This document shows positions 6,201 to 56,172 of a DNA stretch of 64,000 nucleotides, in pieces; within the stretch, counting starts at the first letter, position 1, and each line of letters begins with the position of its first letter. The position numbers were made by a program, and so were the translations under genes. This stretch comes from Phoronis australis (taxonomy: Eukaryota > Animalia > Phoronida), in the NCBI GenBank assembly GCA_002633005.1, contig NMRA01000447.1, forward strand, positions 281,182 to 345,181, written 5' to 3'. The notes beneath the pieces were generated by a model that had not been told where the DNA came from, did not search any database, and saw nothing but the letters and a program-made list of their open reading frames with translations.

Positions 6201-9200
6201 TGCACCCGCCAAAATGTACGTGATAAAAACGGCATTGATAAATTTAAAGTTTGTTTTAAATGCGTTTGCTCTGTTTTCATATAACTGTTGAGTAGCGCCT
6301 AATAGGGAGATCAGGATCGCAAAATCTTTAAAAAAAAATACATAATTTTCAACAGATTTTGGCGAACCCACTTCTTGGAGATGCAAAACCTGAACGAACT
6401 TTACTTTGAATATGCTAAGCACTATATTCTAGAAATATTGCCATATTCACTATTCTTGAAAAACAGGTGAAATGCATAAAAGTATTTCATCAATTTTCAA
6501 ATTCTACGCTCTTAATAAGTTATATACGCGCATGCGCTCAAGGACTTGCCAGTAAACATTTTCCCAAGTTGTTTTGTTTTTATCAAAGGACATGTAAGCA
6601 AAATGTGTTATACCTACCTATTTCTGGCCACACGAAATAGGATGTGATTTGCCCTATGGAGAGGTGAGTATCGTCGACGATCCGTGGGTTGGAAATTTGA
6701 AACCGTATGAAAATGCTTTCAAATCAACATTGATTCAAAAACCTCATGAAAAGACTGTTAAAACTAATCAATGCGCAACTGCTCTACAGTGTGGTCTTGG
6801 CGGTGTGTGCATGCACACGTTTGAGTCTGGAGACACCTATTGCTGCAACATCAAATCAGTTTTAAACAAAAGAATATTTTAGACCTTGAAATTAGGAAGA
6901 AGTTGTTTTTATGGAAATAAAATTTTAGTAACTGGAATATTCCTCTGAAACATTTTCATCATTGTGTCGATTGGGCTGACCGTGATAATTAAGTCTGTAC
7001 TTTAGTACAAATTACAAAACATAAAATTGCTGTGACAATTTGGGCAAATACTGACAATTTAGGCCTGCTGCTTTAACCCAGGTTGTCACATTTTTGAAGT
7101 TGAAACAGTTTGTGACATTGTAGCAAATTGGACCTTGCGTATGATACTCCCATTCGTAGTTAGGTAACTAACTCAGCGGGTTTTAACTTTGTAGTTCCGT
7201 GTTTCATCTACCGAAATTTCCAGGTACTTTAAGCCTGTAGCCACCGAAAATGACGGCACATGTACATGTATATAGCGAATCAACACATATGAGTACATCC
7301 AGCTCCCCAACGGACAACATACAGAATGATTCATGATAAAGTGACTCTGCTGGAATAATTCTCCAGTACCGTGACTTCTAAAACTACTTCCGGCGAACGC
7401 GTCTCCTTGTCGAATTCATAAAGTCAGAGTTTTCCAATATTCCAGCGATACAACTTGCAAGAATATCACCCTGATAGGTGATCAACCTCGAACCAGCACG
7501 ACGGAAACAGAACCATTAAAATACCTCTTATTCACTTGGTGAAGAAAACTTTTGTGATGTGACAAGCCATAGCATTTTACGAACTTGTGTTTCCAAAGCA
7601 ACTAGTTAAGTGAAACCGTTTTCTTCATTTGTCCCGGTACTTTAATATTGGTTGAAAGCATATAAAAATTTAAATTGTGTTTTCAAAAACACAGAGAAAA
7701 TTTCACATGTGAAGAGAGTTAAGCGTTGGTTGTTTTTTGTTAAACTTGACCACTAAAACCTTAACCGCATGACCGACAATGTGCATCTCTGACAACAGTA
7801 CCAAGTGGCGAACCTTGTAGAGAGATTATCTTGTCGACAAGAGACAAACCGGAGGTCGAAAAGCTACCAGCTTAAGAGCAGAGAGACCAGTTATTGGGGT
7901 GTGGCTGGGTATTTCTGAGCACGGTGGATTTGCGATTGTCTCTGTTAAGGCTGATGCTTTGGAATCGGCGTAATGGCACTGCAAGTCGGAGAATTGATGA
8001 GCAGTGTGCGTCAAAACGTTTGGCAGGCTGCCGGAAAACGTTAAGTTCCCTTGCAGATTTATAAAATCATTTTTTCCGTAGTAAGATGAAATTATAAATG
8101 TTATTTAATAATTGGAAGAAACGTTGAATGATCATGGACTTTTTATTTGTGCGGCGATTGTCCATTCTTAAATCTTGACAGATTTATCAAACACTTTGAG
8201 AAAATACATCGGTTCGGAATAACACGTACAGCTGTATGTCGCAATGGTTGAGCTGGTTACATTAGTTAAAGATTCCTCATAATCCTGGAGACAAAAGAAA
8301 ACTACAGTCTTGTGTGTACAATTTCCGTTGTAACGGACTTCCAGTTTAATGAGATTTTGGGCAATACTGGTGATTTTATTCGTTAACTTGTGGTTATGTA
8401 ACAATGGGAAACAATCATTTTTGAACACGAAAAAGACTCATTTGCTGTGAGTTGCTATAAAAAAACTCATGCTGATGTAGAAGTGTTTTAGTAGCGCCAC
8501 TTCTGCCCTTTTGTTTGTAATTCGTTTGGATGCCGAAGGCAATCGTATACATCAACCTGCTAATCAGAGTTGTTGCTTTGTTACGTACGCACAGTTTTGG
8601 TAGCTCCTGGTTTGGACTGCCCAGCAGTTGCTGAATATCGCTGAGTGAAACTGGTTCAGAAAATCACTGACCAAAAATCCACTAAATAATGACAAATTCC
8701 GAACTGGGAACGCATCTCGCATCCCCGAGGTGTATCACGGCGTCACATACAGCCAGCTCTGTGGTACCCACTTGTTGGATTGTCAAATAGATGCAAAATA
8801 ACAGTAACCCGTTCAATGAAGACTTCTGCAAAGCATTATATTCTTCCATCACTCATGTACTTCCTCCTTGCAGGTATGCATACCCTTGGGACTGCAAGAA
8901 ATTTGTGTCGGAGCGAAAGTTTGGACAGTAACTTAACTTGGTTGTTTTATAATTATGTTTTTTAGATGAATGTTCTGTGTTCGTTATCGTTAGATTAAGA
9001 AATCATCCATGCAATCCGCAACTGAATCATGAATAACGAATATACTTTTAAATTTACCTTGATGCTGGCTTGTAACGTTCATTAATAGTTTGTACAATAT
9101 AGCCGGATGTCTCTTCAGTGTTTGCAATATATTTCAGAATCCCTCTACCGTCTCAGCACACTTTCTTCAGTGGGATCTGGGACTGTCCGCGTGTATGGCG

Positions 9201-12200
9201 GAAATAACGTTGACCTGGCCACTGACGTCATATCAGCCAGCGTGTATGACACTACAGACTCCACAGCTTCACCACCTACACAAGTACTCCCCGGCAATGC
9301 CCTAGAATATAAAGAGTATCGCATACACACTGGTGTTAATGTCTTCACGACTTCTGGGAACAAAACAAACTTGTATTCCAGAATCGTGAATATTAATTAC
9401 GGTACATTTAACTAATACTCTATCTTAACAAAACTGAAGTTTAAGCATCCTCAGGTTTACAATTATGTAGCGGGCCCGTAAGATAACTACATATGTACAC
9501 GTTTACTTTCTGCCATAAATATAAGGGTCTCTCACCGCTTGGTCAAATCAGAAACACAAGCTATAGCAGGGCTGTGCGCTGAAAATGTCCAAATGTCTTT
9601 AAGAACGAGTATTGTATCAAAAATGATCCACTGTAAATCGATAACTGTGTCTATTAAGTATCGTGACGTGGTGCTGATGAGGAACACTGCATGATGCGCG
9701 CTATGCGAATCCCTAAGGTACGTCATTACTGCAAGGGTCACCTATTTGCATTTTTTGTTTTCACATTTACAAGTTGTCAATGAATACACCCGTAATCGTT
9801 GACAGTGGATGATGGTCAAACAGCATTGTCGATCCTGCTCTACATTAACATAGATAGGAGAATGCTTATACATGTATATGTAAATGTTGGGTTGAAGTTA
9901 CATCCTGATCTGGTTGTTCCGCAATGTTGAAGAGGTTACACAAAAATTTGTTTTTTGTAACAAATTATGGAGGTTCATCACAAGTTTGACTCAAATTATC
10001 AATGACTTTCATCAAAGTTCTGACTTGTATTTGGTCGTTACCTACTGCAAATGTACAAAATTGTTAGTTGTCACCGACCTAGTTTTTTGCGTTACGGGCG
10101 CCTAAGTAATGGCCCCTTTGGTGGAAAATTGTAAAATTTTCATAGTTTTTTTAAGAAGATGCGTCTCATTAAATTCCGTAGTATTTCTTGGTTTATAGAT
10201 TTTTTTATGCTGGCGTAAGGGATTTTATTATTTTTTTTATTTTGAACACCTCTTGTTTTGGCTTATACACAAAAAGTTCCGCGGTTATTTCTGTGGTTTA
10301 TTTATTCATACTCATCGTGTTTTGTATTAAATACGAACACAGTTCAGGGTCGCTGACAGCAGTTCCTGAGATACATTTCACAGGAAACAACATCAGAAAA
10401 ATTAGCAATTTAACTCTCTTAAGAGCACGCCTAGTCAGTCCTTTGCAGCACTTTGATAGGTGGTGATTGCTTTATGTTGTTGGGATTCTAACTTGTTAAA
10501 TCCATAGGGCAATCTAGGACAATAACTTTCTTCTTTAAAAAATTCAACATTAGGGTTTGAATTAAGTCACACTTGGACCCGCGATATCACATTGAAACCA
10601 AATTGAAAATGTTCTTGACATTTCCCATTCTGTCTTAACATAAAACCGACATTGGCTTTTATTATTCTATGCTCAATTTCACCATGGCTTGTTGAATTTG
10701 GAGACTGTTCGTCGGCACGTCTGTTCATGTCCGCTGATACCTGTGATCAACGTTACTATTTCCGTTTAGGTAACATCGCACTCTCTGGAGCTGATCAGTC
10801 GTCGACACTGAAGCTTGTAAATTCTTCGTCGTTGACTTGGACTGCTGAAGCCGCGAAGGCCATTGACGGCAGCAGGTCTACAGACTTCATGAAGGGAACG
10901 TCATGTTCTCACACTTTAAAGAGAAACAACTTGCAAAATCCGTGGTTGAGGGTTGCGCTAAATAGAATGCACAGCGTACGCGGCATTGAAGTGACGAGCA
11001 GAAATGGTTCACGTGAGTTTCAATGACTGGAATTATATTGTTTTACTACACCAAAACTAGAAGCAATACCGATTGCATGAATACATGGTAATAAGTCGGG
11101 TGTACAAAAATGTTCTCAAACATCAGTTCTCTTAAGGAGAATTTAAACGAGTCTTTTAGCTTATCACTGGAAGTGTAATTACTTCGGTCCTGAAACTTAA
11201 ACTTCACTTTTGAAGTGACCGCAATGGTATAATAGAACGGTCCTGGATTACGCAGCGTTCTTGAATTCCTGGTACTTACGACATTGCAAAATCTGTCAAC
11301 TGACTTGTATTCGTGTCATTGGAGTTTCTCATGTTATTAGTTGGTGCCTTACTCGTCCATGTTAGCTGTGTTCCACCTTATAATGGTAGCCAACTTTTAC
11401 TTTTGTGCTGTGTGATGCAACTCTCGACGGCAGAAATTAGCATGCATTTGAAAAGTATAAGGGTACTCGATATTTTACAGCGTGGTTCCTGATATCAGGT
11501 GGAGATTTTTGTAAATGAGGCCAGTGTATCAACAGGTTTTAATATCAACTGGAAAAATAGTTCTCTGTATGACAGCCCTTTTAGATCCGCATCCACTAAT
11601 TGGGGTTTGCCGGTATTTTTTCTAATATCGTGAAAAACTTGGAATTTGTTCCGTAACGCTTTCCATCACGGTTAGAATGACAACTGAACTTGTGGTCATG
11701 TATCCAATTTTTAGATGATTGCAAGAACACGCAACTAGGTAAAGACTACATGGGGACAGTCAACCAAGACAACGCAGGCCACACATGTAGAAAGTGGAAC
11801 GATTCGAGACGGCCTCATCTACATGCACTAGAAAATTATTGTCGGAATCCCGATGCCAAGTCAGGTGGACCGTGGTGTTTTCACGCAGTTGGCGTCTGGG
11901 GCTATTGTGATGTTAGCCTGTGTTCAGGTATGGAATTGGCTTGCTGCTACTTATCAAGGTGTAATCACGGACTACCGCACGGACTCTGCTGTCTCTTCTA
12001 CTCTTGTCAAGTTTCTTATTTGCTGATTTAAACGTAGAAGTCTATCCTTGTAACGCCATCTCTCGCACATGATTAATGTGTTATATTGTTAGAACTTGCG
12101 ACCTCGAGATTAGCCGCAAGAGTTTGCACTGGAAATTTCCAGCTACCTGTTCTACTGAGTTATGGTCGAATATAGTAGTTGTCAAATCAAGTCTAATCTC

Positions 12201-15200
12201 ATTGCTTCATTTTCATTTAGTCATGTGGTGCTTGGGGTACAGTTCTAGACAACAAAATCAACATATGCTATTTTGCTAAAACGTTGCGTGTTTCAAATCC
12301 TTGTACCAGAGAATGGGATTATCACCCTAGTAAAAGTAAGGTCGCATGACAATAGTTGGCTGACAAAGTAATGTTTTGCTGCTCAAACCTGACAACTTCA
12401 AAGCCTTTGCAACAAATAAAATGATATTATCTTTGATCATCCATTTCCAGATAATCTCAAAGACAGAACGGTATGGAACACATTGACACGCAACTGTTAA
12501 TATCACCCATACTCGTAACTTGTCATGGATATGGTTTACATGTTTATTACACCCAAGAACTATTGTGCGTCCCAATTAGCTTAACGCATAATTACTTTAT
12601 TTTTGAGAATATTATTACGATTTCACATATAATACGAAATGTTATCAACAGAAACAATGAACGCAGTCTTATGTGCCTGCTTGTAGATCTCACAGAGTCG
12701 CTGAGAGATTTCCAAGTCCGGGTCTCCAATAGAAGTGACACACCACCAGAGATTTCTAAGGACGTTCTTTGTAAACATTACACCGGCACCATCAGTGACG
12801 CCACCACTGTGTACATAGCTTGTGATCGTCCAGTCACTGGAAGATACATCTATGTCATCAAGAACGGAAACAGCAAATCAGAAACATTGTCTTTGTGTGA
12901 AGTGAAGGTGTGGGGGAAACCAGCCAGTGCAGGTATTTGATTGGATAGAAATTTTATTTTTTTAATTAAACTAGATTTCAATCAACCTAGATCACAATTT
13001 GCCAAACTTAAACATCTTGACATGAGCAGTTGGCAGAGTATTCGGACTATTGTCGCAATAAAAATGTTGTTTTGGAAAACTTTCATTGCATTTTAATTTG
13101 TTTCAAAGCTGTTTTCATTTTGTAGCCTCCAGCACACTCACTACAAGAGCGAGCGTGGGTGATGGAGTAACAGTAACATTTGAGGGGATAGAGTCCTCTG
13201 GCATCAGATGGCAGAAAGACGGCATTGGGTTTTATTCCAGCGGCGACTTAGTTGGATGGAATGACAAGCTGACTAACACAATTAGCCAAGTTGAAGTGGC
13301 ACATGGCGGAGTGTACTCTATATATAGACCGATTGGAATTGTCCTTGGCATCACCCGCCTAGTTGTCAGAGGTTAGAGGTTTTCTCGTCATTGGGTCTGA
13401 TTTGATTAAATATGAAGTATGTGCCAGGCCTACGCTACCACGATGTAACAACATCATCTGACGGAGATAGGCTGCGTAAAAAAAACACATAATACACCAT
13501 CAAATGTTATTTGTCAGTTCACGACGTGGTACAGAGGCATTCTGACATCACTGTTGTTTTCTCGAATGATAACAAATTGTCATTTTATTCAATGCCCTGT
13601 ACTGTCTTCACACTTGAATATGGAACACACTGACCTCGTTCGGTTTTTAGCATTAGTCTTCGGTGTTCCCTAACTAAAAGTTCTTTATGCCACTAGGCTT
13701 CAGTGTTCTGAAATACAAATTAGTTTCTTTACCTGAAAAAGGGTTCGTAGGTGCTATCAGTATGTTATTTGGCAACTGAAAGAAACGAAAATCGACTAAG
13801 TACGCATTATGTGTGAACTATCGGTTACTGACCTTAGACAGCAAGGGAACATCACACGCTTTCACGATAGTCAATTTTCGCACATACAGTAACAGAGCTT
13901 ACCGATGGTATCCTGTTACTACACCCATCTACCCAATATACGGTGGTACCATAATGAAGAGAAAGGGGTGTCAAGCTTGTATATGTATTACGCAATGCAT
14001 TTCCACTACACGGAGTGCATCATTGCTCGTAATTGGTGCACAGCTGATGCTCGCACTCAGGGAAGGGGTGGCGGGGGGTGGCTGAAGCCTCAAATTTGTC
14101 GAAGTGGGGACAAAGGTCCCCTCGGAGAAGTAAAAAGTTCCAAAGAAGTAGAATATTAGATAAACATCCACTAAATAGGCAGTGGCGGATCTACGGGGTA
14201 AAAATGGCACCGCCAGCGTATGTAAACCTCATGTAAACCACCCCAGAAAAATTCAGGGGGGTTCATTTTGAAAATATAATTTTGCTGCGCTGTGATTTTC
14301 TGGTATGAAAAACAACCCATTTCGAGTTTTCGTGGCACATCGGCAAGACGCGCGAGTTCAATATTTGTGAGCGAGTTTTCGTCGACGCTTTTTAAGTTGC
14401 CAAGCACTTTAAATGGATCCAACGCTGAAAGAGCAGCTCGGTCTATATCCACATCGCCTCTTATACGGTCGACCTCACCTTGCCGAGAAATGTAGCATTA
14501 GCCTGTGAGGAAGGTGAGAAGTAACGCAGCGACGTCAGTGGTTCGTCTGCAGAGTGAATGCTGCTATATTGCGGTGCATAGGTTCCGGGTTGTCCGAACT
14601 ATTTAGCTGCGAAGAAAGCGGGTATATCGTTTTTTCCTCTTCTTCGAGAGCCCGAAATGCTTAGGAAGTGGCTCGTGGTAGTGAAGAATGAAAGGTATGC
14701 TATTAATAGCAAGTATGAGGCCGTGAAAAACCTCCATGTCTGTGGCCGGCTTTTCATCGACAGTGATTTCTCTGACGAATCCCGGCTTACCAAAGAACTA
14801 TCCATGAACGTACCCAGCCTTCGATATGGCGCGCTCGAATTCCCGACGATGTTGCTAACAAAAGAGCGGGCGGACTGAAAAAAAAAAAACAAAAAACGGG
14901 AGCACCTCTGTGAATTGCGACTTTGCGCTTATTTAGTGGACTTTTGTCCCATTTTCTCGGACTTTTTGTCTCTCTGACCAATTTGCCCACTTCGCCAATT
15001 GGGGGGAGGCTCCTTCGACCCCACCGAGCCCCCCTGGGGGCGTGCATGCTATCCCTACGTTCCGTTGCCTATGCATATTCACGGCATTTCTCTAGTATTT
15101 CTTGATCACTGTATTCAGGTTCGAACTGATAGCATGTGAAACTTAACGATCCGACCCGTGAAGTCAACGTCTGATGAGCTCTTGACTGGGATTGGCGCCG

Positions 15201-21200: not shown

Positions 21201-24200
21201 TGTGGTCTCACGGAAAAATGAGTTGGCAAATCTTTTCGAACCCAAAAATCACTTCTCAACTGAACATTAGAGATATTATGACCAATATTATAACAGTTGG
21301 CTGTTAAGTTCAATAATTAATTTCTTGGACAGAATTGATTGTTTATGGCCGCATTATAGAAACGGAATTTTGAGTTCCGTTTAAAAACATAACGTTGTGG
21401 ATATTTCGACCACCTCCTGAAAACTGGTGTTTTGTGGACAAAATATACTGGACGCATTTCTGTAAAAGAAGTCTAGCATTTTAAAGGGTATTTTAAAAGA
21501 AGAAATCTTTTAGAAAACGAGATTAAACACTTATGAAAAGTCAGTACAATAACTGAGCCGTTTGCAAGAAACGACTAGTATGTTCGGAGACTCTGACCGT
21601 TGTTCCGGGACCTAGCAATATATTTGTGTCGTTGCAGTATGCCCAAGGGATAAATACGGCGTTAATTGCACTGAGAATTGTCCACAATGTGAGAATGGAG
21701 GCATTTGTCATGACATCACTGGGGAGTGCATCTGTCCACCTGGATTCATGGGACACATTTGTTCTATAGGTGAGAACTTTAGTTGGCATGTTTAAAAAGT
21801 CACTGCATCAGTTTGTTAAAGAATGTCCCGTGCCTAATGACGATGTATGGAAGTTGCAAAGTACTGCTTAACTTGCGTGATCCAGGCGACGGGTGTATGG
21901 GACAATACCATTGTTTTCCATCACTGCTTCTTTGTTAATTGGACATAACAATACATATGGCATTGGTATTGTTCCTTGGGTGAACATCGGCCGGTTACCG
22001 ATAAATGCTTACCATTATCTGTATGATATGAAAGAAAAACTAAGTGAGGAATGGATACGACTATCGACTGAGAAGCTCACAACCTATTTTCTAGTAGGAA
22101 AGGAAGTTTTCCTGGATAATAATCGCATAATTACACTTCCTGCATGCAAAGAGATTGTTTTTACAACTGAAAAAGGCAAATTTTGATTTATTTTTGACTG
22201 GGGAGATTTCTTTAAAGATTACTTGTCTCGCCTGGAACAAATACCCGTGATGCTCCTACATGGAGACTGCGTGACTGTGAGAGCGAAGATCGAGGGCTCG
22301 AATCTGCGAAACTTACATGTACTTTTTTCGCCGGCAAGGGTATTTTATTTACACAGTTACGGCTCTGGGCAGAGGCTAATCGGAAAAAAATCTTGCCAGC
22401 AATGTCACGTACACGACTGGTATTTCCTGGCGCACTGTTTGGTGGAAAATCACTCAATTTGAAGTGATATAAACTGTTGCGGAACTGACATATTCCATAT
22501 GCATGTACTTCTTTAGTGCCAACTGGAGATTATAATTCATTCTATTGGTAAATCTTAGTGGGCAATTTAATGGGTATGAGTGTAAAAACGAGCTAAGTGC
22601 ACCAGATATAGGTTGATATTTGTAGCTAATTTCTGTCAGCCTGAGATGCAGTTCTACTCAGATTTAGCCAAACCAACATACCAATTTTTTAGGCCAACTC
22701 GATTGAACGACAACAGTTCCATGAATTTCGGTTTGTGCACAAACTTGGTTGTTTGGAACCTAAACTCTCAAATCAACACGTTGATTGTTGAACAACATCT
22801 CGGTTGAGAAAGACAAGGATCAAGTGACAAGTGACTTTGCAGTATTAAACTGTATATCATTTGCATACTTCAATTTTAATCATTGATGGTTAGCTGATTA
22901 CCAAATCACTAAAACAATTATTTTATGAATTGATAAGATATATAATTACACAACAAAGGTACAACTTGCCCTAAACGTTGCAGTCCTAATTGTTTCCAAT
23001 ATGTTTAGATGGCGATTGATATCAATTACTGCAATCAACAACAGGTAGTGTCATTAAAAAATAATGCAAATAGAAGTTGTTTTTAACAACAATCGCAGCA
23101 ATGTCCAGACATGAATGTTCGTTTAGATAGCCTATGCATGCGTAAACCCTCTCGAATTGTCTTCCCAAAGGTTGTGGGGGTAATCGGTTTGGGAGTGACT
23201 GCTTATCCAATTGTTCCGAGGTGGACAGTGAGGACGGATGTCGAGGGAAACATGTGTGCACGATAGATCCATATGGATGCTCCTGTGTTGCTGGATTTAA
23301 GGGGATGACTTGCAGTGAAGGTATTCGTTTCTAAATGCCATAATGTGATATATTTCTTTGCAATCCAAAACCCGTGTACTAAATTTGATAGGCATTGAAT
23401 GACTGCTTATTTCACATTCATATTTTTATGGTCACGGTAAAAATAGTTGTGTTTAATTGCTGGTTATTTCACGTTTGTTATGCACATGTAGGTGTTAGTT
23501 CGCGCACTTGAAGTTTCACGTGTTATTTTTGGTAAAGACTGCATTAAATGCAATCCACCTTCAAATGCAAGTAAAATTTTAGTGCTATGCAGGGGCTACT
23601 ACTCCGATGCCAAAAAGTTGCACTGAGAAACCTGGAAAGTATTCGTTGATACACATATAAACGTTTTGAGATATTATTCTGCTGAATAATGTCGAGTGTG
23701 ATAAGTTTTCATCTACACAAAGAGTTGCTCCCCGGAGAATTCATGTAGGTCATATTTCTACGCCAGTTGATGATGTACTTTCTGTTTATACCATGAGCTT
23801 CGAAATTTTAAATTTATTTTTTTTTCAAAAGACATTTCAATTCGTGTAAGAAGTGGGGGGCTGCGGGTGCATGTCCCCCAAATTGTTGGCGTCAAGGTGC
23901 CAAGCGGCAAGTCGTTGGGCCAGGGCTGTCGAGAAATGAAGAGCTGCAAACACGAGAAAATTTACAAGAGAACATGTGGCTACTCAGCATCAGTTCATGC
24001 TATACTCTTTCTTAGATCTGGCCCGGATATTGATGTTAGGGTCACCGTTTTTGGAGCATAGGTCCTTTAAGCGCACTTGAAAACGTGCACTTAATCTGTC
24101 ATACTTGTATCTCGAAAAAATCGATAACATTCGTAAAGAGAAACTTTTTAAAAGTGTATTCATTCACTGTCAAAATTTTAAATTCAGAAAGGCAAAAACG

Positions 24201-36200: not shown

Positions 36201-39200
36201 AATCAGTGAAGATAATTAAAATATACTAAATAAACCAGGCAAAGTGTGTTGTAGCTAAGAATTTTTTTCCTTTGAAAAAAGAATACAAAGTACGTAGTTC
36301 CTTTGTTACATTTTGACAAGCTAACTACTCCAGATCTCAGTTCAGCACATCTACATGTAAAGATGCCAAAATGAAAAAAAATATTAAGAAAGAAATTCTG
36401 AGAATCATTCGATAATTCACGTTTCCAGTAATAGCCCCCTCTATCAGTACATCCAATTTTTATAGAAATTGCCAGACTTAAAGATCGACCAGCAGTCATG
36501 ACAAGAACAAGAACAACTGTATCCGTTCGTTGGACAGCCTGGCAGAGTGGAACAGATCATGGCGTGGGACCGGTTAAAAAATACATTATAGAGTACGAAC
36601 AAGATGGTGGTGGGGTTTGGACATCCACAGAAGTTGATAATGTGGCAAATCAAGCTACGTTCACTTACAATATCTCCAACACTGACATGAGCCATTTCTA
36701 CCTAGTGAGAATAAGGATAATGCTTGCAGGAGGTCTGCTTGGGAACGCCAGTCCGGAAGTGGAAGCGTGTGGAGGTACAATAATCCTCTCTGTTGTTAGA
36801 AATAGGGTAATTTTAGTAACATATTATAGTATTATTATAACTATCAAAATACTCTAAGTACGTGAAGTAACTAATTGTAATTAAGCCAGAATCTGCTTCC
36901 TAATGCTGGGTACTGGTGCATATAGCGTACTCAATACCTACGTTAACCATTACTATGTTTTGAATTTCAGAGCCACAAGCACCCGAACCAAGTCTATCAA
37001 ACACAGTTATTAACACAGTCAACATAAACTGGCCAGTAAGGTTTAACAGTTTCCAAAAATTAAATACAACGTTATACATACAATACTTCGCGAGATAATG
37101 CCACGAACTCATTACAATTAAAGCACGTGTTCATCTGAGTTCACAGGCTTGACGAGAAGCTTGCATCTGAGGAACTCATCCCTTTATGAAATTGAGTGGG
37201 AATTGTCTATTCTAGAAATGGCATATGTTTGGTAGTAGGTAAAATCATGAATACATGAGTCAGCTGCTAGCTACAGCAACATACTACATGTATATTAGGA
37301 GAAAAGATATTAATTCCACGATTGGCGCTGGTTGATTCAAAGGTTTTCCTTTATTATCTGATCACCTAAAATCTGGTAATTCCATTTGATTTGATAATTC
37401 CATGAGTTTACTAGTTATCTATTTCTGCATGCGTGCATCCAGCCTTCAATATGGGGGTGGCTCGAATCCTTGACGTTGTGGACCTTTTGATACCAAAAGA
37501 GCCGGCTCACTAAAAAACAAAAAACGGGAATAGCACTGTGAATTGCGCTTTTGCGCTTATTTGGTGAGCTTTAGTCCCAATTTCTTGGACTTTTTGTCTC
37601 TCGGGAGGACCTTTTTGCCCACTCCGACAAATGCGGGGCTACTTCGACCCCCCTTAACCCCCCTGGGTGCGCGCATGTTCTGCGTATATTAACCTCAAAA
37701 AATGTTTTTAGTTCCATTGTTCAACATGAGTAGTCTGGTGTGTATTGTAAGAGTTAGATTGGGTGTAGGAAGACTGATTAATTGTCGAGTTGTTTCAGTG
37801 TTTACAAATTAGCCTATGTTTTATTGACTTGTCCCGGTTTAATTGCTCAATTGTGCAACATTCAGGAAGCTGACTGGAGATGTGGTACACCGGGGTGGTA
37901 TGTAGTGGAGTACATCAACGGAACAGACACCACGTGGCAGAGAACCTCCAGAATTACATCGAGTAATACGTCATTGTACACGGCACTCTGCACCACCTGG
38001 CAAATAAGAGTCGGGGTCTTCAATAAGCACATGTCTAGCCTGTCCTGCGAAAAAAACATCACCAGCAAAAGTAAAGGTAACTATCCAGCGCAGGGCGTTA
38101 CTGATTTGAGAATCAAACGTGTCCTTGATGAGAACACGTGTATTGCTGATGGCATTTTGTTTGTACTAAAATGTTCATTTTGTAAAAAGACACTGCTGTC
38201 TCTTAGACGTGTGTTTAAGCTGTCATGAGAACCACTTGCATTATTTAAAAGACTGAAAACGGAAGTACGATTGATACATTTTTAATGAACCAATTCACAT
38301 CTTTTTTCGCTGCACTTTATATCTCTTGGCATGGTTGCCAGGCAATGCTGCATGCACTAATTACTCAATAACCGGCGTTACGCAGTGATTTCACAGTCGC
38401 ACTTCGGCATTGAAGGGATGACCTCTGGTGGAAGTAGAGTATCCATGATGTTGATACCATATGATTTTTGGGAAGTATTGCTGGGAGTTTCATACAGTAG
38501 GTAGTAGAGAGATTTGAACTCCAACGATTGTTGACTATTAAAAGGCCAAGTCTTCCCTGGAACTGTGCGAGTTTGATTATTGTCATTTTGCAGTTTCAGT
38601 TCTTCATCGCCAATGTTGCTGTACTCTAGCTCAGCAAAGAAAATGATCGTGGTTCTAACCAAAATGCAGCCATACGCTACATCTTTGTCTACCAAGGCGG
38701 GATAAAATTTCAAATTCTCCTTCCACCTTGCATTCCCTTGGTGAGACTACATGGCCAACTCACACTGACGCAGAAATGTCGACTTTCTCCGAAATCCTGT
38801 GTCACCCGTGAGCCATTCTTGGGCCATAGCCCACGCTTATGACAGAATTCATTATTCGCTTCGAATGAAAAACCATTCTTTTTTAGAAACGAAGAAACAC
38901 AGTGACAAATAACCCTCAGTGGTTACTCTTGCGGTCCATTCGTAATAGGGTTTTAGATACTAAAAATTCTCAGCGTCAGGAATACCTTTGACGCTTATCA
39001 GTACGTCGAATAACGACTTTCACGATAGATAGTACAAGGAATCCCTCATAAAAATCCATGGCTCTTTGCTGGTATCCTGCTAGCTTGGATTTGATTAACT
39101 GTAGGATGGGCGAAATCTGCCTCATTGGCCGATTTTAGATGTTGGGAGAATAGTCGATGATTGCGATAGTGAGTTGTCGTCTCAGCTTGTCGCAGCAGTG

Positions 39201-42200
39201 GCATTCAGACGCGGCATTGGCTGCCTCAAGGCTGTTTTTCGCACGGATGGCCCTCTACTCAGTAAAATTTTCAGTGCCCGTTTCCTGTAACCTAATTATT
39301 TGTGTCAAAGCGGCGACCTCGGCTTCAAGTTCTATCCTGAGAAAGAAATAACTAGTCGAACAATGATTACTTACACAGCATGGTTTAACGAGAATTTGAC
39401 GAGCGTCTGCTTCATATCTCGCTCTCTATTTCCAAGACGTGAAAATTCTGCTTACAAGAAAAAGATGGGTAGATTTTATTTCACTCTCCTTTCCTAATTG
39501 TCTTTCGGTCAGATCCTAAAACGAGATTGAATATTTATGATTGGTTTGAACTTCTGTCAATAATACAGTGTTTTCAGAATCACCATACGAAACAAAATCG
39601 TAGCAAATAGGAACAGCACATCTGAAATGTGCCTAATAGACTTACCAAATAAATTTCAATAAGTGTGAACAATTTACGTTTAACACATGGGCGGCGCACC
39701 ATAGGGGGCTGGGGGGGCTATAGCCCTCCAACTTTTTTTAGGGCTAGGTCGCACATTGTCCATAGGCAGTGCACCACAGAGGTGCTGAGGGGGTTTTGGC
39801 CCTCCACTTTTTTCAGTGCTGCGCTGCCCATATAACAATGCAAGAATTCGTAAACGTCACCTTTAAAACAGTACTTTTATGGAAGTAATAAATTATTGCT
39901 TTGTGGCCTTGCGTGCATTTGCAATCAGAAAATCTAAAAATCGAGTGAAATGTGATTGTGATATTCAGCATACGCTGAAAAGGCGAAGGAGATTCAGTTC
40001 ACTAATCGTCAAGAACACTAATGACGAAACCAGTATTATTCTGAGCTACCAACCGGAGACGATTTGTGCAGACCAGAACCGCATGCTTTACTTTGATTCT
40101 TGTGTCCTGACTATACTGAACAATATAGTGGGTGGCAAGGTTTGCAACAAGCGCTAGATTTGGTAAGAGTGTTTTCATTTTCATCAAGAAGGTTTGAGGT
40201 CCTTCTGGTAAGGTAATGTGGGCAGTGTCACAGTGATACAACATGCAACAGATTCGGAGCCTTCGTGGGTATTTCGGGGATTTACAGTCTTGTGGGTTTA
40301 TGTAATAGTCCCAGTCCCTGACCTCAAAATTACAAACTCAACAAAAATATCTTCGATATGCCATACTCTACTTCAAGACATCTTTAAAATCTCAACTGCA
40401 AAATTTAACTACAAATTCCTCAATAATCAGCTTCCTAAGTATTTTACACTAACAATTTCTTTAGTAAACCCATCCAATATAAACCAACCAGACACATTAA
40501 AACTCCTACATACATGTACCTGAATCAATACTCAGCTGCTATTCCGACAATACAACCCAAATTTTTAATTCCTCTGTCCAACAAAGTGTCATCAAGAGCC
40601 TGTATTAGATTTCAGATTCCTCGACTTATAAACAACTACAAAATACCAGTCCCTGCTCTAAATATAATAAAAACACATCCTTTGCAAGCATTCTCCAGGT
40701 TCTTAACCAATTTTATTATTAGCAACTACGATCCAGAGTGTCATTTTTCCAATTTCTTCATTTGTAACAGTATCTAATTGTATTCTCAAAATCTCCTGAG
40801 CTGTGTCAGTCTACTTCTTGGTTCCTTGTCGTTTTCAGCACTAATTCACTTTGTTTTCTTAAGTATTCCTACTGATTTTCGCATTTCCATTTATTTATAT
40901 AGGGGAGCTTCTTATTAGCGGTCAATAAACTTTAGAAGGCTTCCTAATTGAAATCAAATTTTAATCAATGTATGAGTATAATGTAATGCAAATAAAAGTG
41001 TTTTCTCTCTCTCTTTCTCTCTCTGAAACGGCATAATCAGACATTTCGTCTATAGCATCAATTCATTGCCAAAAAGAACTGAACTATCCATGACCTACCA
41101 AGGATGTTTCACTTTTGGTTTATGTCACTGCAAGATTGGCACTTCAGCAGACAGCTTCCTTATCAACTGGAAATATTACATCGTTGTCATAACTGTATGC
41201 CTTCATGCAGGGTACGAACCAATCTACATTAGAGATGAAGTTTGGTGCTGCAGGTGACTTGCTTACTGAGCAAATTGACAAGGACATGCACGTAAACTGA
41301 CACCCTCTACAAGACGATGGGTGTCAATTCCTAGGTTAGGAAGGGGAGCTTTGAGTGTTGTGGCAAGACAATTTAACGAAGCCTTCGGTTGACGCAACTG
41401 GCTGGATTTTCCATGAAAAATCAATCTTACCTGGTCTCTTTCTGAGGTTTTAAAATATTTGCTCTATGAGAAGAGTGTCTCACCTGCCGAGCAGACTTTT
41501 CTAGAAAACGACTATATCTGACTATGTGCCGCTTCATAGACAGGTATGGTGTTTCTTTGAAAGACTTTGATAATTACCCTCTCGAGATGTTTCATGTGCT
41601 CACTTGTTTCTGTTTTCAAATGATGCTTTGCTTAAGTTCCCGCTTACCGTTTGCTGTTTCTATAGTTGTAGTGCTGGTGCAGATAGCATAACTACATGTA
41701 GGAAAGTCAAACGTTTGATCTTACTCGTTTTTATATACCTCACTTAACACGATATGTTTGATAATATTTCCTTGTCTTCCTGCGGCACATTTTCGATTTT
41801 GTAGCACTGTCAGCACCTCCTCAAGACGCAAATGTGATTGTTACACGGAGTTCGTCACTGTACTTTTCGTGGAGTGGAGTGGAATGTGTTAAACAAAACG
41901 GACAAATAAGCAGCTACAGATATCAAGTACGTAACAGCAATGGTCCGTGCGTTGAAGCTAAAAATTGTGTCAATGAAACGGATATTCGAAACGTTACTTT
42001 GGTCAAGCTAACACCGTACAGTACATATGAGTTGAGAGTTCAGGCGATTGTAGGAAAGCAGGCTGGTCCTTGGACGGCGTGGACTATCGTGACAACTAAC
42101 CAAAGTGGTAAGTGGGAATGTCGTCAGTTGGCTGCATGATGCTATGCAAAATGTAATGCAAACAGAGCGCTATGGAATTTACCAACAGCAGTTCGTAATT

Positions 42201-45200
42201 CGAATGTTCCTTGATTTCCCTATAGTTCCTTTGATAAAAGAGTGTAAACATATACCTGTAATAATCCGTTTCTTGAGCAGGCATTTTTTGTTGTTGATTC
42301 TTCAAAAGCATTGCAAGATGCAAATGGCTTAACATTTAACACTCTTGAGCCTAAGTTGTTGAAATTACACTCAAATAATTCCTTGTCAGTGTTCTTTTTA
42401 TACGACCTTGGGACACCAAATTGAATGGGTGGCATTTACTGTATCAGGTTAGATCAGTCAGTGCGGTCAATGTGGTTGACTCGTTGGAGATTTTGGTTAC
42501 AGTACTAACGGAGGACCTAAACACACGATTGCAAGCTCATTGTTTGCGCTTACGCCGTGAAAAACGGGTGTACACTGTTTGTACGAATGTTAGCAGTCAA
42601 ACAGTCAAGAAATCAAAAATATTCAATCCTACCTGCTCTTTTTAAATTCTATTACTGAGTATATTTAATCCAAACTCACTATGATGATTCATCAAATCGT
42701 GTGGCATTTTCTTATTAAACCAATAATTCTTAGGTGGCCCTTTTCAAGCGTCATACTTCAAATGTCGTGGAATTGTCCTGTATATAAAACAAAATATCTT
42801 TATGGAATTTTACGTATGCACGTTAAAAACTGCTGGAATAGGAAGCTGTTGAATCTTGGGACGTGTTTTGGTGCAAATGGTACCTAATCATCTTGTGATA
42901 TCGGTGGCAGTGGAAGTATTTTTGAACAACAGCTTCCTTCGTTGTGTAGTGCACAAGCCTGTGATAGCTTTAAGTAGACATCTGTTGTAAGACAGGAAAG
43001 ACACGGTTTGGTCAATGTGCCAACATTTGAGTCTATTGAAACTTGTTAGTTTGAAGATAATTTATCGATTTCATATACAGTTAATATTCTTCGGATAATA
43101 ATTGTGTCGCAACACGTACATAGAAAATGTTAGCTGAACTTTACCCATCCTTCTTTCTCATACCGGTTAAGTAATCTGTAACTTGAAAGACTTCACCGAT
43201 AACCAGTCGCGTGTCATATCCAGTTGATCTGATTGGATCAGCCAGCTGCATAAAACTCAGCTAGTGAGCGTCCAGAACGTGTAAATCACTATCTATCTTT
43301 TGCATGCTAGCTTAAGTCGAGAGGCAACATGTTAGATATAGGGACATGATTGTTAACTGAAAATCGGTGTCGACACGACTGAGCAATGTTACCTTGGGCT
43401 GGATTTCATAGTAAAAGTTCTACTCTGATTTGCTGATACGATGAGCAATGGGGTCGAACCTCTGTTCATGAGCTCTGTATATTCCCTGTCCTCATGCCCC
43501 AGAGATTGCCAAGAACCTATATTCTTCTCTCGCAATTGCCCTTCGGCCCCAAGTTCCCCGCGTTTCGAGAGCAATATTTTGTGCGATGGGGGTGAACTGG
43601 AGGCACGTATTCCCTGGTCTGATTTTGACCGATGTCTGCCGTACGGTTACTACCCGTTGTAAGGTAAAGGGTTTTTGATCCGTGCTGAGTGCTGTAGTGG
43701 CAAATGCACTTTTTCCCCGAAATAAAGGGAAAAATTGCGAACCAAAGGTATTGTATCGAGAACAAAATATTATTGATTTAAAGATTGGAATTCACCAAAA
43801 CATTTCATGCTAATAATGCCTGAACAATTTTGTGACTTCTGGGTATTTCCAAGTTCTCAACAAACAAACTGAAATCTATTGCGCTGCAGGGGGCCAAGTC
43901 AAGTGTCAACTGGTTACCCACAGACCAAAAGTCAGTTTGTCTGGGAAGACAACATAAGTGGTACCTTTCTCGTTCTAGTTCCAACAGCCCCAAAAAGCGT
44001 TATGGTCATCGAGCGTTCACCAGGATCTGTAACTCTATCATGGTCTGCTCCGTGTCCCCCGAGAGGTTTGATTGTCGGGTATATGGTCCAGTACCAGTCC
44101 CTTAATCGATCGGAGCCTGCCTTGACATCTGTTTGTAACAACTGCACCCGGATGTCTCTTCAGAACCTTCACTCTAACGAACTATACGAGTTCAAGGTAA
44201 GCGATTTTCATTGTAATTCCTTACAAAAAGACAGAGGCGGATCACGGATTTTGTGTAGGAGGAAGGGCGTGGGGACGGCCAGGGTATTATCAAGAATTTT
44301 TATCGTCAGACTTTGGCGCCCACGAACTGCCAAATGAAATATTTGATAATTTTATTGTGGGGGCTTTGCCCTCTAAATCCACCACTGAAAGGTGCCCTAG
44401 TTTCGAGTGTTTGAGAGCGCTTTTTTGCCGGTTAAACAAATAAAAGTTCAACCCAACCGCAACCAATTTAAACTTTTAGCCATTCTTTCCATCACGTCTC
44501 AAATTCTTTGGTAAAGAGTTTCGGGTCGAAGCCTCCTAACGTTTTAATACTTCACATGTCATTTCACACATTGTTTATATTTTGTTGAGAAATTCGTTTG
44601 TCTTGCTTATTGTAAGAAAATCTGAATCTCTCTATCAACTCCGTCGAGCATGAATAGATTGTCATGTAAACTAGAATTACACAAATAATGTCTATATCTA
44701 ATATAACCAAATAATGTGATTTTTATAATATGTGTGACAACCCGGTAGGTCCAGTGGCTAGAGATGAGTCGCCGAAGTAGAATATTTAAGACGCATTGTG
44801 TTTGGTTAGTATCTGTAATGTTTCTTTCTGGATATTCTTTCTCAAATTTGATGACTGTCAATTGAACAGATTCGTTACAAGTTGACCTTGGATTTTATAT
44901 TTTGACAAAAAGTGCTTTGTAAAGTGAGAATTCAAGTGAGAGACGTTGGAATACATCTTAGACATGGTGGCGCAGCTCTGAAAAAAGTTGGGGGTAAAGC
45001 CCTCTTAGCCCTTCTGTGGTGCAACGCCTATAGCCCATGTGCAACATAGAACTGAAAATAGTGGGGGCTATAGCCCCAAAGCCCCCTATGGTACGCCGCC
45101 CATGTTAGAATTGGACATCATAAGTTTTAGAAACTAAACGTGCGAGCATCAAGAAAATAAAGCCAAACTCAGGTTGTAATTTACATGTACATGTGGCATA

Positions 45201-48200
45201 ATAATCTTCAAAGTGAAAACTCTGCCACCTGGCGCTTGCATATTCAACAATATAATAGGTAAATTGTATAAAGGCGGGAACAGAATTTTGTGTTTTAATG
45301 TCATGCTTAACTTTTTTAGAAATGGAGCCTTGAGTTACTCAAGTTTTGTGTATTAATATGCGTTTGTTTTCATTCTAGGTTAGAGCAAAAACAATTGACT
45401 GGGGGGAATGGAGATCTTCTATCTTTGAGAAAACAAATATGGGTGAGAACGTCTCTTAATTCCTTTGAAGCAGTGCTTCACATAATCGATGTAATATTTC
45501 TTTTTGCCTGACTGTACTTGCGTACTTTGTCTAACAGACTGAATGGCTGGTGTGTTTTTCGTATTCTAAACGTTCTTCCACCCAATCTCTTCAGCCCCAA
45601 TGCCACCCAAATCTTTGGGGTGTACGGGAGACTTGCAACAAGAATCTGAAGAACACATTGGAAATATGAATTGGTACTTATTTGAAGAACATTAAAATAC
45701 TCGGATTGATAGAGAATAGGAAACAGTGAAAATAAGACATTGTAGTTATTTCACTATATTGCATTGTTACATGCAATACAGCATGACATAAATGCACAAG
45801 ACGTACCTAGAGTGATGTCGACCTGGACCTTCGGTCTCGGTCGATACGCGGAATAATGTCTCGTGGGATATTACTTCATGTAAGCCAATTGAGGTACGTT
45901 TTGCATTTATCGCATACGCTTCGAACTCCCAAGTTTCTTTCATTTTGTCGGCAGATTTTCTAAATACTTCACTCAGACTGTTCACGCGGCGGATCACATT
46001 TTATACGTATGTACTTGCGCATTAGGCAGCAAGCTTTCTCTAATAAAATAAACATTTTTAAATGTGACGATTTATTACTTGAAAAGAGATGTTGAGTGTT
46101 TTTTACACTGGTATAATGGTATTTCTTTAAACCATTTTCCGAAAGTTTGGTTATCGAACTGGCTAACGACGTCGAGTAGATATTGACGTACCTTTTGAAC
46201 TTTCATGCCGTAGGCCACTGTTGAAGTAGTGCGTTAGGTGAATACGGAAAACCTTATTACATGGTAGTATTTCCCTCTACAGATTCAACGCATATAGGAT
46301 AAATAGAAATAAAAAATGATTGAGCAATAAAACGCAAATGCATCTTCCGCTGACAAACTCTAGAACGGAGACAGTTCAGTTTTGGGTAGCAAGGTGTTAA
46401 CAAAGAATGAAGTAAAACTGTAAGAAACATAAGGGCGGCAGAGCAAAAACGTGTTAACAACAACAGGCGCAAAGAGACGAATAAAGAGGTCACAAACAGA
46501 ATATAAGTATCGTCCATCTGGAATAAAGCAATTGCGATTTATTTTCCAGAACTGAAATTCTGATTCAAATTTAATCGATTTCAAAATCAGTATTACTCTT
46601 GTAAAACAGTCTGTGGTTGAACTAAAATTGTTGTGAACAACTTTCCAATATTTTCGTAGTCCTTTTGTGTGCGTGTTTTCGTCTGCGACAGCATATGACG
46701 ACCATATGAGTCATTCTAAGATGGCTGCCGAAAAGCAATGTACAGTTGGAACAACTCGACATAAATTAAAGAAATTTTTGAACCAACGAGTACTAAAAAT
46801 TTGTAAAAGTTAAGTCAAACCCTATTCGGAGCATAACTTTGAAGTGGAATAATTCGGTGAGTACAACGAGCCGGTATATTACTTAGGTGGACGACCATTG
46901 GTTTTCCGAGCGTAAATTTGACATTTCACCCTGGTCTGTACTCCTGTGCATTACCGTGAATATGTTTGTATATAGTGTACCGCACTGCTTACTTTCCTTC
47001 CCAACAGTAATAGACTACAACATCGTCGGTGCCGTTTGTGGATTCTTGGCTTTTATCGTTCTTGTCGCTATTATTGGGTTTCTGTTTCATAGGTGAGTAT
47101 TGGTACTCTCTATAGTTTCACCAAAGTTCTGTCACACTTACATGTATTCTGGAGAACACCAAAAATTGAAGCAGAAAGAAAAGAGCACACCTTGTGTAAA
47201 AACGAAGCGCAAATATATCAAGCGTTTGACATTTACTATACTGTGTAAGGGGAAGCACGATATACACCTATCCGTTTACCCCCTTCTTGAGGTTACATCG
47301 CTCTTCCAATGTATCAATATTATGTGCATGAGGTCGCGAGCTTGAAAGTGAAACTGTCACATTTCACCAACGCTATCTTGTTGACTTCTCTTTTGTCACC
47401 AGACTGAACGCTCTGCAATGTGTTTTAACCTTTTGCCTAATCAAAATACATGAGGATTTTCAATCGTGAATCTGTTTCAAAGCTGTGTGAATGTTAATGA
47501 TATCTAGATCTAGTTTCTTGACTGAAAAGGGTATCCTATAAATTCAGTAACGAAATGTCCCGTTTTACGTACATTTAAATATTTCTTTAAAATCCAGAAA
47601 AAGACGATGGTGCCACGAGACGCCAAAAAGTGAGACAAAAACAGAAGGACACTGTGATGAGCCAGGTACAGGTACATTTGAACGCTTCCGAAGGTGAATG
47701 CGGCACTTATTAGGTACGAAGGAATTGGTTAAGCTTCAGGTTTGGTGACCTGAAGTTTAAAAGCCAACTTCAAGCCATATGGCTACAGTGAGGGGAAAAG
47801 GCTCTTCAGGTAATCTTGATGGAGCCTTTTTGTGACGAGAATATCGAAGCATGGGAGTGAAATTCCGTGTTTCGAGAACAACGAGCATCAGGGAATGGGC
47901 AAAACGTATGGGAACCAGACATGTGGACCTCTTTTTACCGTGCATGGTATACGAAGAAATGATTTTACACCAGCTTCAAACCACATGATTACCCGGATGT
48001 TGTTGGTTCTTTTAACTGTTGCACATGAAGGTATTTCCACCATGTAAGTGTTTTGGCACATTAAAGTTTTACATGCCCGTTCACGTCACTGAACATTGTT
48101 GAATTGAAATGTTATTTCAACCAGCTAGGGGTTCTGGTTTTCACTCTATTTTTCAATGTAGTCTACATTAGGTTGGTGGCTTGGGTAGATGAGCTTGTAA

Positions 48201-51200
48201 ACTACAGTGCATGAACGCGTACACCATAGATACAGCTGTACTGCATCGATGGAGAGGAGAGCTCTCTTCATACGACGATGCAGCGTCACGTGTACACGTA
48301 CAGGTGCACATGGGTCTTGTCGGCCAGGTCACATACATGTATCCGTATCACGCTAGAAGCTCCGCGTGTTTAACTGTTACTCTAGTTCACTGCGTGGAGT
48401 ACTAAATACAAGAAAAGTATTAAAATAAAGTAAAACAAGTGATTTATTCTACGTTCAATCTGGTTTCCTAATTCTAACGCATATTTCTGTGCCATTGTTT
48501 ATCTTTCCCTGAAGTCCAGCACTTGTTTATGTAATCTCCATATGTATTTCCTGGTTTGATCGCTGATAAGAACTGCAAACTACACAAGCAAATCTCTGTT
48601 GAGGTGTGGTTGACTTTAATTTATCTCATAATTAAGAGATACATGTTAAGTCTGTGAACTGGTTGGATTGGTTTCATTTTTACCATGCTCGACAATACGT
48701 CAAAACCGTAAAATAATTGCGTTGTCAAAAATGTCTAAGGTCAATATTATTGGAACTTACATTTAATCGTTCCTTCATGTACATGTAGTCATCTAAACTC
48801 ATGTTAATTTTTACAACAGGTCGCTCAAGACGATTACATCAAAATCTTGTCCCTGCCACGGAGATGTCCACAATTGACAACAATAAGCCGGTAAGAAAAA
48901 TGGATATCATACTAAATAGATCGCTGCACAGGAACGCGTTTAACCATATGGAGTGCTTGGACCTGCATTGATTCATACTTGAATTTAATATTCAGAGTTG
49001 TGAGGTTCACATGTCCAGAGAAACCTGAGCATATGATTCTAAAACCTGACACCAAATCACGATACATACCCTGCAACTTAGAAATCAATCATGTAATCTT
49101 TAAATTGATAATTATGACATACAATGTCATGCAGTGGCCTCAAATGTGAAGTAGTAGGCATGTTTATGAACACTATGGCTTCTCCAACATCGCCGTGGTG
49201 ATTTGACTCGATATTATTGAGGTGGCGTGTTTGCTGAGAAATGCGTATATCCAATTAAATTCACCGACAAGTTCATTTATGTACAGCATTTCTTTTCGGT
49301 ATTTTTTTCAGAATGAAAATGACGCACCCAACACTTACGAAACTGTCACTGACGACAGACCGACTTCCAACGTATATGAGAAGATAGAGCCCGCATATTG
49401 GGCGATACCGTATAACTCTATCGTTTTTGATGAGGGTGTTGGTAAAGGGAGTTTTGGTGACGTTCTATCTGCTACCATTGCCAAGGATGGCGCTTCGGTC
49501 AAGGTGGCATTAAAACGATTAAACGGTAAATACATTCAATCACTGATCCAGAAGGTGTTTATTGTATGTGAATTCCCTCCTGTAAATGAGAGCATGTTTT
49601 CCATGGTCGTGAATCTGGGTATGTGAATATCTCTTTCTAATATTGCACAACGACATGCCTGAAAAAATAGCTGTTCAGTTTCTTTCTTTAGCGCAACGCT
49701 TGCATTTAACTTGAGCTGCAACAAAACAGCATATTAGTAAATGCATGAAATGGACACATAAAGCTCAGCTTAGTGCTTGACTTTGTATACTGATTTCCTA
49801 ATATATTAACGACTTGCTAAAGCAACAATCATAATGTTATCTAATCCACATTCTTTAACATTCAGCTCGCGCCACAGACAAAGACAAGACCGACTTTATC
49901 GGAGAGCTCAATATTTTTAGCCAAGTGGGAAGTCACGCAAACGTCATATCATTGATAGGAGCTTGTGAATATGAAGGTAACCTCAGGACCAGGCACAATA
50001 CCACTGGTTTAATTGTCGAATTAGATTAAATAACAATTAGTTAAGAGTAGCAAATTGTATTTTATGGTAACCCCCATGCAGTGTAACGATATTGTTCTCC
50101 GGTGGGTTTTTTAAAGGAAAGACGGAATTGAAAATTTGACTAAAATGCGGTACTACATAAACTATATTTACAGTACACAATAAAAGGGTTTCAAACACAA
50201 CTAAAGCAATCTAGGGAAATACTAAAAAGTTAAAAACAAAACAGGTACCTGTTTTTAACATCCCTGCAGGTTTAGTCTTGTTGACATCAGAATAAAAAAC
50301 TCCATTTTAACGTCCCAGCGTACAGAGTTGGATATTAGCCTAAACTGATACCAGTTTTATGGATCTAAAATTACTAGGTAAGATGTGAATTTGGTGTACT
50401 AATTACACTTTGAAACCAATGAGTTCCCCACACAATGGGGACATTTGCAGTGTTCATCATTAAACATTTGATAATCTCTAGACACTCAATTTGTGACAGC
50501 AAAAATGTATACATCTACATGTATAGACAACAGCAATACACATATATGCGGTTCACTAAGGCATACAATATCGTAATCATATTCTAAGTCTCTGAAATCT
50601 GGTCCTGGTACCATATTTTACTGGCTGAAGTATTTAAATCCCTGTTCCAAAATGCGCACCCAATAAAACTTAGACTGCAGTCTACTATTTCTGAACAACA
50701 CATGTTTGATATTATGTTTTATTGATTACGCCTGCAGATGTTTTATTTGTGGCTACTGAATATGCTTCGAAAGGGAACCTTCGAACGTTTCTAAGAGACA
50801 GTCGTATGGACTCTGATTACGCCAACGTTGGCTCTATGACAAGTCTTAGTGAGAAGCAGTTGCTGCAGATGGCGCTGGACGTCTCTCGGGGGATGAAGCA
50901 CCTTGCTGCTTTTAAGGTAGTGACTGAGGAATGTAGGCTGATTCTAGTCTGAACATAAAAACTTTGATATGTAGAAGACGAACAGTGTTAAAAGCACAAC
51001 TAAACTTTTTATTTGAAAGATTGATACTGAAAAAATGTATTTTCAACGAAGATTGTGCTAACGAATGACAGCTGCCAAACTATACCGATTTGTTGGAGGA
51101 TGTATATCAACAAAATGCTGATATGAAACTGGAGATTTGAGGCGTTTGAATGTGATGTCAAGAGTAAAGCCTGGTATACTTGACCGACGTAAACTCCGAA

Positions 51201-55870: not shown

Positions 55871-56172
55871 ATCATTGAACAATAGCGGTCACTACTTGTC
55901 TTTGTAATTATTTATTTATTACCATTTCACTACAGTTTGTAGCCCTCGTAACTGCCGCGTTGCCGTAGACTGACATTGTACACAATTGACAACTGTATCC
56001 GATTGCTACAATTGAATGTTTACAGGCACCCGGCCATATCAAGTGTTAGGGATTTCGTTTGAACAAACATAAATCAAACAATGCACCAAAAAACTACATG
56101 TTCTACTGGACGTTTCCAAGTTGTAAAAATACATGCAGTTGGTGCCAAGTGAATCGGTGAGGTCATTGTTAA

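Follow-up and report, generated by a model that had tools for sequence, protein, structure and literature searches.

Can one protein domain be spliced into the ligand-binding loop of another, and does the exon that carries it behave as a switch? The question is raised by a stretch of 64,000 nucleotides from the phoronid Phoronis australis (assembly GCA_002633005.1, contig NMRA01000447.1, positions 281,182 to 345,181 of the forward strand; hereafter the window, whose own numbering is used throughout), in which a kringle exon stands between two exons that each encode half of an F-type lectin (FTP) domain. Here we describe the evidence that the kringle is nested in loop CDR4 of the lectin and is spliced in, a conclusion that is well supported and that we hold with high confidence. 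The host gene encodes an intact receptor tyrosine kinase (RTK) of the Tie-like kind. A first-pass annotation, made from the letters alone, had given the coordinates, phases and translations of these exons, which are correct, and had proposed that the kringle exon can be skipped, so as to switch the receptor between two ligand surfaces.

The two lectin exons are complementary pieces of one Pfam model, PF22633, of which the exon at 10770-11012 covers positions 1-41 and that at 12687-12932 positions 46-90; each half alone scores below the curated cut-off of that entry. Joined, they reach 96 bits over columns 8-139 of an FTP profile of 139 columns made from 62 intact FTP domains, which covers the whole jelly-roll, and in the window only the open reading frames (ORFs) of these two halves pass the threshold of that profile. 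The exon that lies between them matches the kringle family PF00051 with 50.2 bits for a cut-off of 34.3 (Table). The complementary halves and their joined score thus bear out the proposal of a domain within a domain, not a tandem fusion. Both halves find their best PDB matches in the family of eel AAA (1k12) and striped bass FBP32 (3cqo). The N-terminal half aligns with residues 29-80 of AAA and ends one residue past Arg79-Gly80; the C-terminal half aligns weakly with residues 112-157 of AAA (E 0.22), and with FBP32 at E 6e-5. Since the account of the family in PMC5712786 puts Arg79 and Asp81 of AAA on the fucose face, within loop CDR4, the point at which the N-terminal half stops sets the insert in CDR4, in agreement with the earlier placing of the kringle in a loop of the ligand face.

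We infer that the two halves fold together as one jelly-roll, since the lone cysteine of the N-terminal half (the Cys50 equivalent) would need the cysteine of LCEV in the C-terminal half (Cys146) as its partner, and since each half supplies calcium ligands, Asp38 and Ser49 from the first, Cys146 and Glu147 from the second. The cross-half disulfide and these ligands are described for AAA in PMC5712786, and the Cys50-Cys146 link would be preserved across the insert. Furthermore, the cation motif (h2DGx plus Ser49, Cys146 and Glu147) is present, with AIDGS, SC and LCE aligned to AAA.

Table. Features of the window on the forward strand, with the evidence for each
Feature	Position	Strand	Size and phase	Evidence and content
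Candidate signal-peptide exon	8816..8873	+		Inferred: ATG, hydrophobic stretch, CAG/GTATGC phase-1 donor; one of four candidates
Exon upstream of lectin	9171..9401	+	76 residues, phase 1-1	AG/GT bounds; stranded depth 1.4-1.9 (bin 9017-9533)
F-type lectin (FTP), N-terminal half exon	10770..11012	+	243 nucleotides, phase 1-1	AG/GT bounds; Pfam, 1k12 alignment, stranded reads; calcium motif AIDG, Cys50, His52 and Arg79 equivalents
Intron in loop CDR4	11013..11714	+	702 nucleotides, phase 1	GT-AG; removed in 9+2 reads
Kringle exon	11715..11927	+	213 nucleotides, phase 1-1	AG/GT bounds, six cysteines; PF00051, PDB sequence matches, reads
Intron, kringle to lectin-C	11928..12686	+	759 nucleotides, phase 1	GT-AG; bridged by 3 diverged reads
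F-type lectin, C-terminal half exon	12687..12932	+	246 nucleotides, phase 1-1	AG/GT bounds; Pfam, structure alignment, reads; Cys108, Cys124, Arg131 and Cys146-Glu147 equivalents, Ser at the Arg86 position
Ig-like exon	13126..13371	+		tblastn to second Ig of sea-star Tie-like receptors, 31-37%, E to 7e-8; reads
Four EGF-like exons	21638-21769, 23171-23320, 26498-26638, 28610-28750	+		Homology; stranded depth on first two
FN3 exons	36448..44196 (starts 36448, 37813, 41805, 43979; ends approximate)	+		PF00041 for three of four; that at 37813 assigned by appearance only
Transmembrane exon	47008..47092	+		Start inferred; hydrophobic run and strong donor
Tyrosine kinase exons	49312..53119	+		GxGxx[13 protein letters not shown] and DFG motifs intact

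That the kringle exon is spliced in follows from RNA reads that join it to both lectin halves. Four runs were chosen by their species label, three of which (X1, X2 and X3) consist of raw RNA reads; roughly one fifth of each of these three was analysed over region 10650-13450, and a joint was listed from 3 reads and 2 starts upwards. The exonic reads lie on one strand, and four joints were listed. The joint from the N-terminal half to the kringle, placed at 11013>11716, is carried by nine reads from seven starts (one in X1, eight in X2); it equals 11012>11715 with G as the first exon base, the junction codon then being Arg, not His. Two additional reads across it have a synonymous change just 5' of the joint. 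Alleles or paralogs thus differ in the junction residue at 11715, which is His in some and Arg in others. The joint from the kringle to the C-terminal half (11879>12685) appears in three reads from three starts, all in X1, in which the final 46 bases of the kringle do not align; AG, the letters at 12685-6, also ends the kringle exon, and the 3' part of the kringle is diverged or unaligned in the reads. The C-terminal half is in turn joined to the Ig-like exon (12932>13126, GT..AG) by seven reads and six further diverged ones. In X3 the kringle has no reads and the N-terminal half next to none. The kringle is expressed in two haplotypes or more, and of the three differences listed in it two are silent. 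An assembly artefact was considered and ruled out, since the joints are carried by reads that differ from the window. An earlier mapping of reads over 15.5 kb had yielded no exon joints and was dominated by intronic repeats.

What remains of the sugar site bears on whether skipping would matter. In PMC5712786 the fucose motif is given as His...R-x-D-x4-(R/K); the lectin of the window keeps the His52 and Arg79 equivalents, carries Gly for Asp81 and Ser for Arg86, and has no Cys82-Cys83. An N-G-S sequon follows directly after the Arg79 equivalent. The loss of the Asp81, Cys82-Cys83 and Arg86 equivalents is the same with or without the kringle, and a skipped loop would also carry the sequon, so that the return of a sugar-binding lectin by skipping, as had been envisaged, is not supported.

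The proposed splice switch, in which some cells would skip the kringle and make an unbroken lectin with a ligand surface of its own, is right in that skipping keeps the frame and that the two halves, once joined, are scored as a whole FTP domain, and skipping can remove symmetric exons (PMC3927616). Nevertheless, no skip joint (11012>12687) is among the four listed, whereas inclusion has 11 reads from that donor, at low depth and with the three-read threshold in force. The corresponding upper 95% bound on skipping is about 24% with no skip reads and 41% if two went unlisted, and such shallow sampling leaves room for a minor or tissue-specific isoform. The splice sites of the kringle exon are consensus-like. 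Its symmetry is uninformative, because phase 1-1 is shared by the ectodomain exons around it: the Ig, EGF and at least two FN3 exons have it, and it is the rule in the gene. Altogether, we regard a switch as distinctly unlikely; the kringle is likely to be included in most transcripts, and the present evidence reveals no new regulatory switch.

How the kringle came to stand in this loop can be approached through the relatives of the lectin. Its C-terminal half was searched against 1.84 billion representatives, and the best 150 of 296 matches were examined. Short ORFs (at most 200 residues) make up 28 of these 150, and 22 of them start to match at profile columns 66-72, the other six starting later or not being scored; the first of these columns is a Cys in 289 of 421 intact FTP domains. 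The residue pair expected from a read-through phase-1 acceptor is seen in 17 of the 22 (rough chance 0.2 each, p ~1e-8). In addition, the proteins P0131 and P0143 have a common C-terminal half and diverge exactly at this place. This pattern suggests that many FTP genes have a phase-1 intron at a conserved position in CDR4. Class 1-1 modules, the kringle included, are described in PMC3927616 as entering pre-existing phase-1 introns as a rule, and in PMC2926785 such insertions are put at less than 10% of domain gains. Because the short ORFs imply an intron of this kind, the most likely history is that the kringle exon entered, by shuffling, a phase-1 intron already long present in CDR4.

The loop itself tolerates inserts. 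Its span is nine residues in 313 of 422 rows (421 complete FTP domains from 118 proteins, plus the skipped form of the window) and reaches 19 residues at most among the 421 complete domains, a set from which split domains are excluded by construction. The Cys-closed loops of 18-19 residues belong to the Tie-like proteins P0176 (residues ~95-113) and P0182 (143-160) of the sea star Patiria miniata. Several other proteins (P0012, P0035, P0008, P0010 and P0088) contain runs of FTP half-domains cut at CDR4, which are either missed exons or real repeats; an FTP nested in an FTP was considered for P0008 and P0010 and set aside, the pattern resembling half-domains from missed exons. Residues 428-617 of P0137 form an FTP-like domain with a Cys-containing insert of about 70 residues in a loop after CDR4, which is not a kringle.

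The inserted module has the cysteines of a kringle, at positions 2, 24, 42, 54, 64 and 69, and an intact NYCRNPD/PWC/W-YC core; its inner loop is some 11 residues shorter than in plasminogen and HGF kringles, and its top matches in the Atlas (0.92-0.93) are kringles. Plasminogen-type lysine-binding kringles have a D-x-D anionic centre and an Arg before the last Trp. Aligned to plasminogen kringle 4, the module of the window has Lys for the second Asp and Val for that Arg, and because of these two replacements its ligand is probably not a lysine terminus.

What, then, would such a protein do? Because the lectin has no equivalents of Asp81, Cys82-Cys83 and Arg86, we propose, as a probable reading with real room for error, that it serves as a calcium-stabilised pedestal holding the kringle on its former sugar-binding face. 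The kringle would be a mostly constitutive, protein-binding knob on a lectin without a fucose site, and the receptor would signal via its Tie-like kinase. In kringles the first and last cysteines are bonded, which holds the ends of the module together; it could fit a loop for this reason, and it would stand where AAA has its vicinal Cys82-Cys83 bond. A ligand bound at the kringle might then bring receptors together and so switch on the kinase, in the manner of other RTKs.

Several observations weigh against the nesting, its proposed origin or the pedestal role. The joints may derive from alleles or paralogs, not from this exact copy, given the low depth and the fact that most aligned reads are 88-95% alike, some being intronic repeats; the joint between the kringle and the C-terminal half has just three reads. 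Diverged reads are far deeper on the C-terminal lectin and Ig-like exons (up to 56) than on the kringle (up to 9); paralogs are therefore suspected, some of which may have no kringle or one that has diverged strongly. This copy has also lost two salt bridges that span the halves of AAA, with Ala in place of Asp64 and Lys in place of Glu149, although most diverged reads have Glu at the second position. The AlphaFold2 model of the kringle is of low confidence (pLDDT 57, four sequences); the matches that Foldseek lists for it all contain kringles, the best at E 0.012 and none at E 0.001. The argument for an intron in CDR4 is drawn from protein ORFs without their DNA. Finally, sugar binding may persist through the His52 and Arg79 equivalents, since related galactose-binding modules, those of sialidase and galactose oxidase, are reported in PMC5712786 to retain just these two.

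This last point is the core of a composite site, in which the lectin would bind a sugar via the His and the first Arg as the kringle grips the protein part of the same glycoprotein; the fibronectin type II insert beside the active site of MMP-2 (PMC4466143) offers a precedent. With Arg86, Asp81 and the vicinal disulfide gone, and with a 70-residue module and a possible N-glycan rising from the rim of the pocket, we consider it unlikely. The kringle might also be a tolerated passenger with no binding role, in one of a family of fast-evolving paralogs whose degenerate lectin has a permissive loop, as the shortened inner loop and incomplete lysine site of the kringle, the many diverged paralog-like reads and the half-domain FTP pieces of other proteins would allow. 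The six cysteines and the core are intact, however, the kringle is expressed in more than one haplotype, and the listed differences in it are mostly silent (three sites only), which leaves a passenger very unlikely.

Beyond the pedestal, we advance as a tentative idea, and one that is more probably wrong than right, that the phase-1 intron of CDR4 is an evolutionary socket and that an expanded Tie-like family uses the FTP barrel as an antibody-like display scaffold. The cargo would vary, from Cys-closed mini-loops in sea stars to the kringle described here and possibly none or other modules in paralogs. If true, this would amount to a diversified repertoire for non-self or cell recognition wired directly to a kinase.

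The identity of the host rests on an ectodomain of Ig, Tie-type EGF repeats and FN3, followed by a transmembrane helix and an intact tyrosine kinase. The second EGF-like exon has Tie2 as its best PDB match (E 9e-6), and in a tree of 25 rows, 24 of them taken from 27 selected out of 86 matches, the kinase groups with invertebrate Tie-like kinases (support 95/98) and joins no subgroup. The gene is probably one of several paralogs. In the Ig-like exon, diverged reads carry at 13283-13288 a 1-base insertion and a 1-base deletion five bases apart, which keep the frame. At the 5' end, the exon at 9171-9401 has no family match in Pfam or the Atlas (all matches of the latter under 0.9), and its identification with the first Ig of Tie finds no support, as it matches neither a six-sequence sea-star Ig1 profile nor P0173. 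Stranded depth in bin 8500-9016 is weak (0.19, in one run), and no joint was seen for the candidate signal-peptide exon.

Has such nesting been met elsewhere? A split FTP around a kringle was found in none of the best 150 of the 296 relatives (8 proteins by eye, the others by profile and motif). This is a shallow test: proteins with many repeats are favoured by the search, no close relative came up in it, and it is not a measure of how rare the nesting is. Two weak tests, homologue searches with the N-terminal half and with the kringle, gave no match among 100 candidates and six among 10, respectively, none of the six with the FTP family. One locus from a metagenome scan (L001) proved spurious and AT-rich. 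In the literature, none of the titles and abstract openings listed dealt with FTP-kringle nesting, in a shallow search from which subscription journals are largely missing; the word kringle is absent from the available text of an F-type lectin review (PMC5712786), and a mussel transcriptome paper mentions fucolectin and kringle once each. The statement that the arrangement had not been described is to this limited extent upheld.

Elsewhere in the window, THAP-domain ORFs (PF05485; 14582-14875 and 62326-62934, forward strand) are likely transposon remnants, and the intron at ~14.2-18.8 kb attracts many repeat-like RNA reads on both strands. ORF pieces at 31279-31521 and 55341-55911 (reverse strand) resemble reverse-transcriptase remnants. 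The stretch 56893-58600 contains several open stretches, possibly a decayed transposase, three pieces of which have no Pfam match.

The case is one of RNA-supported exon shuffling of a whole module into the binding loop of another domain, with a visible cause, the putative old intron in CDR4, and a visible correlate, the loss of the sugar-binding residues of the host. An insert of 70 residues in CDR4 thus seems to be tolerated by the F-type barrel, which would be useful for the study of lectin evolution and for scaffold design. Domain annotation misses split lectins of this kind, because each half falls below the Pfam cut-off.

Among known systems, eel AAA and FBP32 (PF22633/PF00754) share with the lectin of the window the calcium motif, the Cys50-Cys146 and Cys108-Cys124 pairs, His52 and Arg79; they differ from it in that the latter has the 70-residue kringle in CDR4 and no Asp81, Cys82-Cys83 or Arg86. 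Five of the best 150 relatives (P0033, P0046, P0049, P0085 and P0103) have both domain types in one chain, but always in tandem and never nested. The Tie-1-like receptors of Patiria miniata (XP_038048240.1, XP_038048242.1 and XP_038075767.1) also combine FTP, Ig, EGF and FN3 with a Tie-like kinase, and in two of the three the CDR4 is enlarged and closed by cysteines. However, they have no kringle, and their FTP precedes Ig1, whereas that of the window is spliced straight to an Ig2-like exon. Four sea-star Tie-like proteins with this order occur among the 86 kinase matches, none of which has a kringle motif. The FTPs of the sea-star receptors rank only 380-410 of 422 by similarity to that of the window, a distance which suggests that the two lectin-Tie fusions are independent. 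ROR1 and ROR2, found as PDB matches, likewise have a kringle in an RTK ectodomain, as a tandem module between other domains and not nested. The closest precedent for the nesting is the fibronectin type II insert of MMP-2 and MMP-9, and domain-in-domain shuffling is to that extent already known: this too is a class 1-1 module gained internally (PMC3927616), it is set in a loop where the catalytic channel ends and serves in ligand binding (PMC4466143), and fibronectin type II is related to kringles according to the title of a reference in PMC4466143. The hosts differ, that of MMP-2 and MMP-9 being a protease whose activity is kept and that of the window a lectin with a degenerate-looking site.

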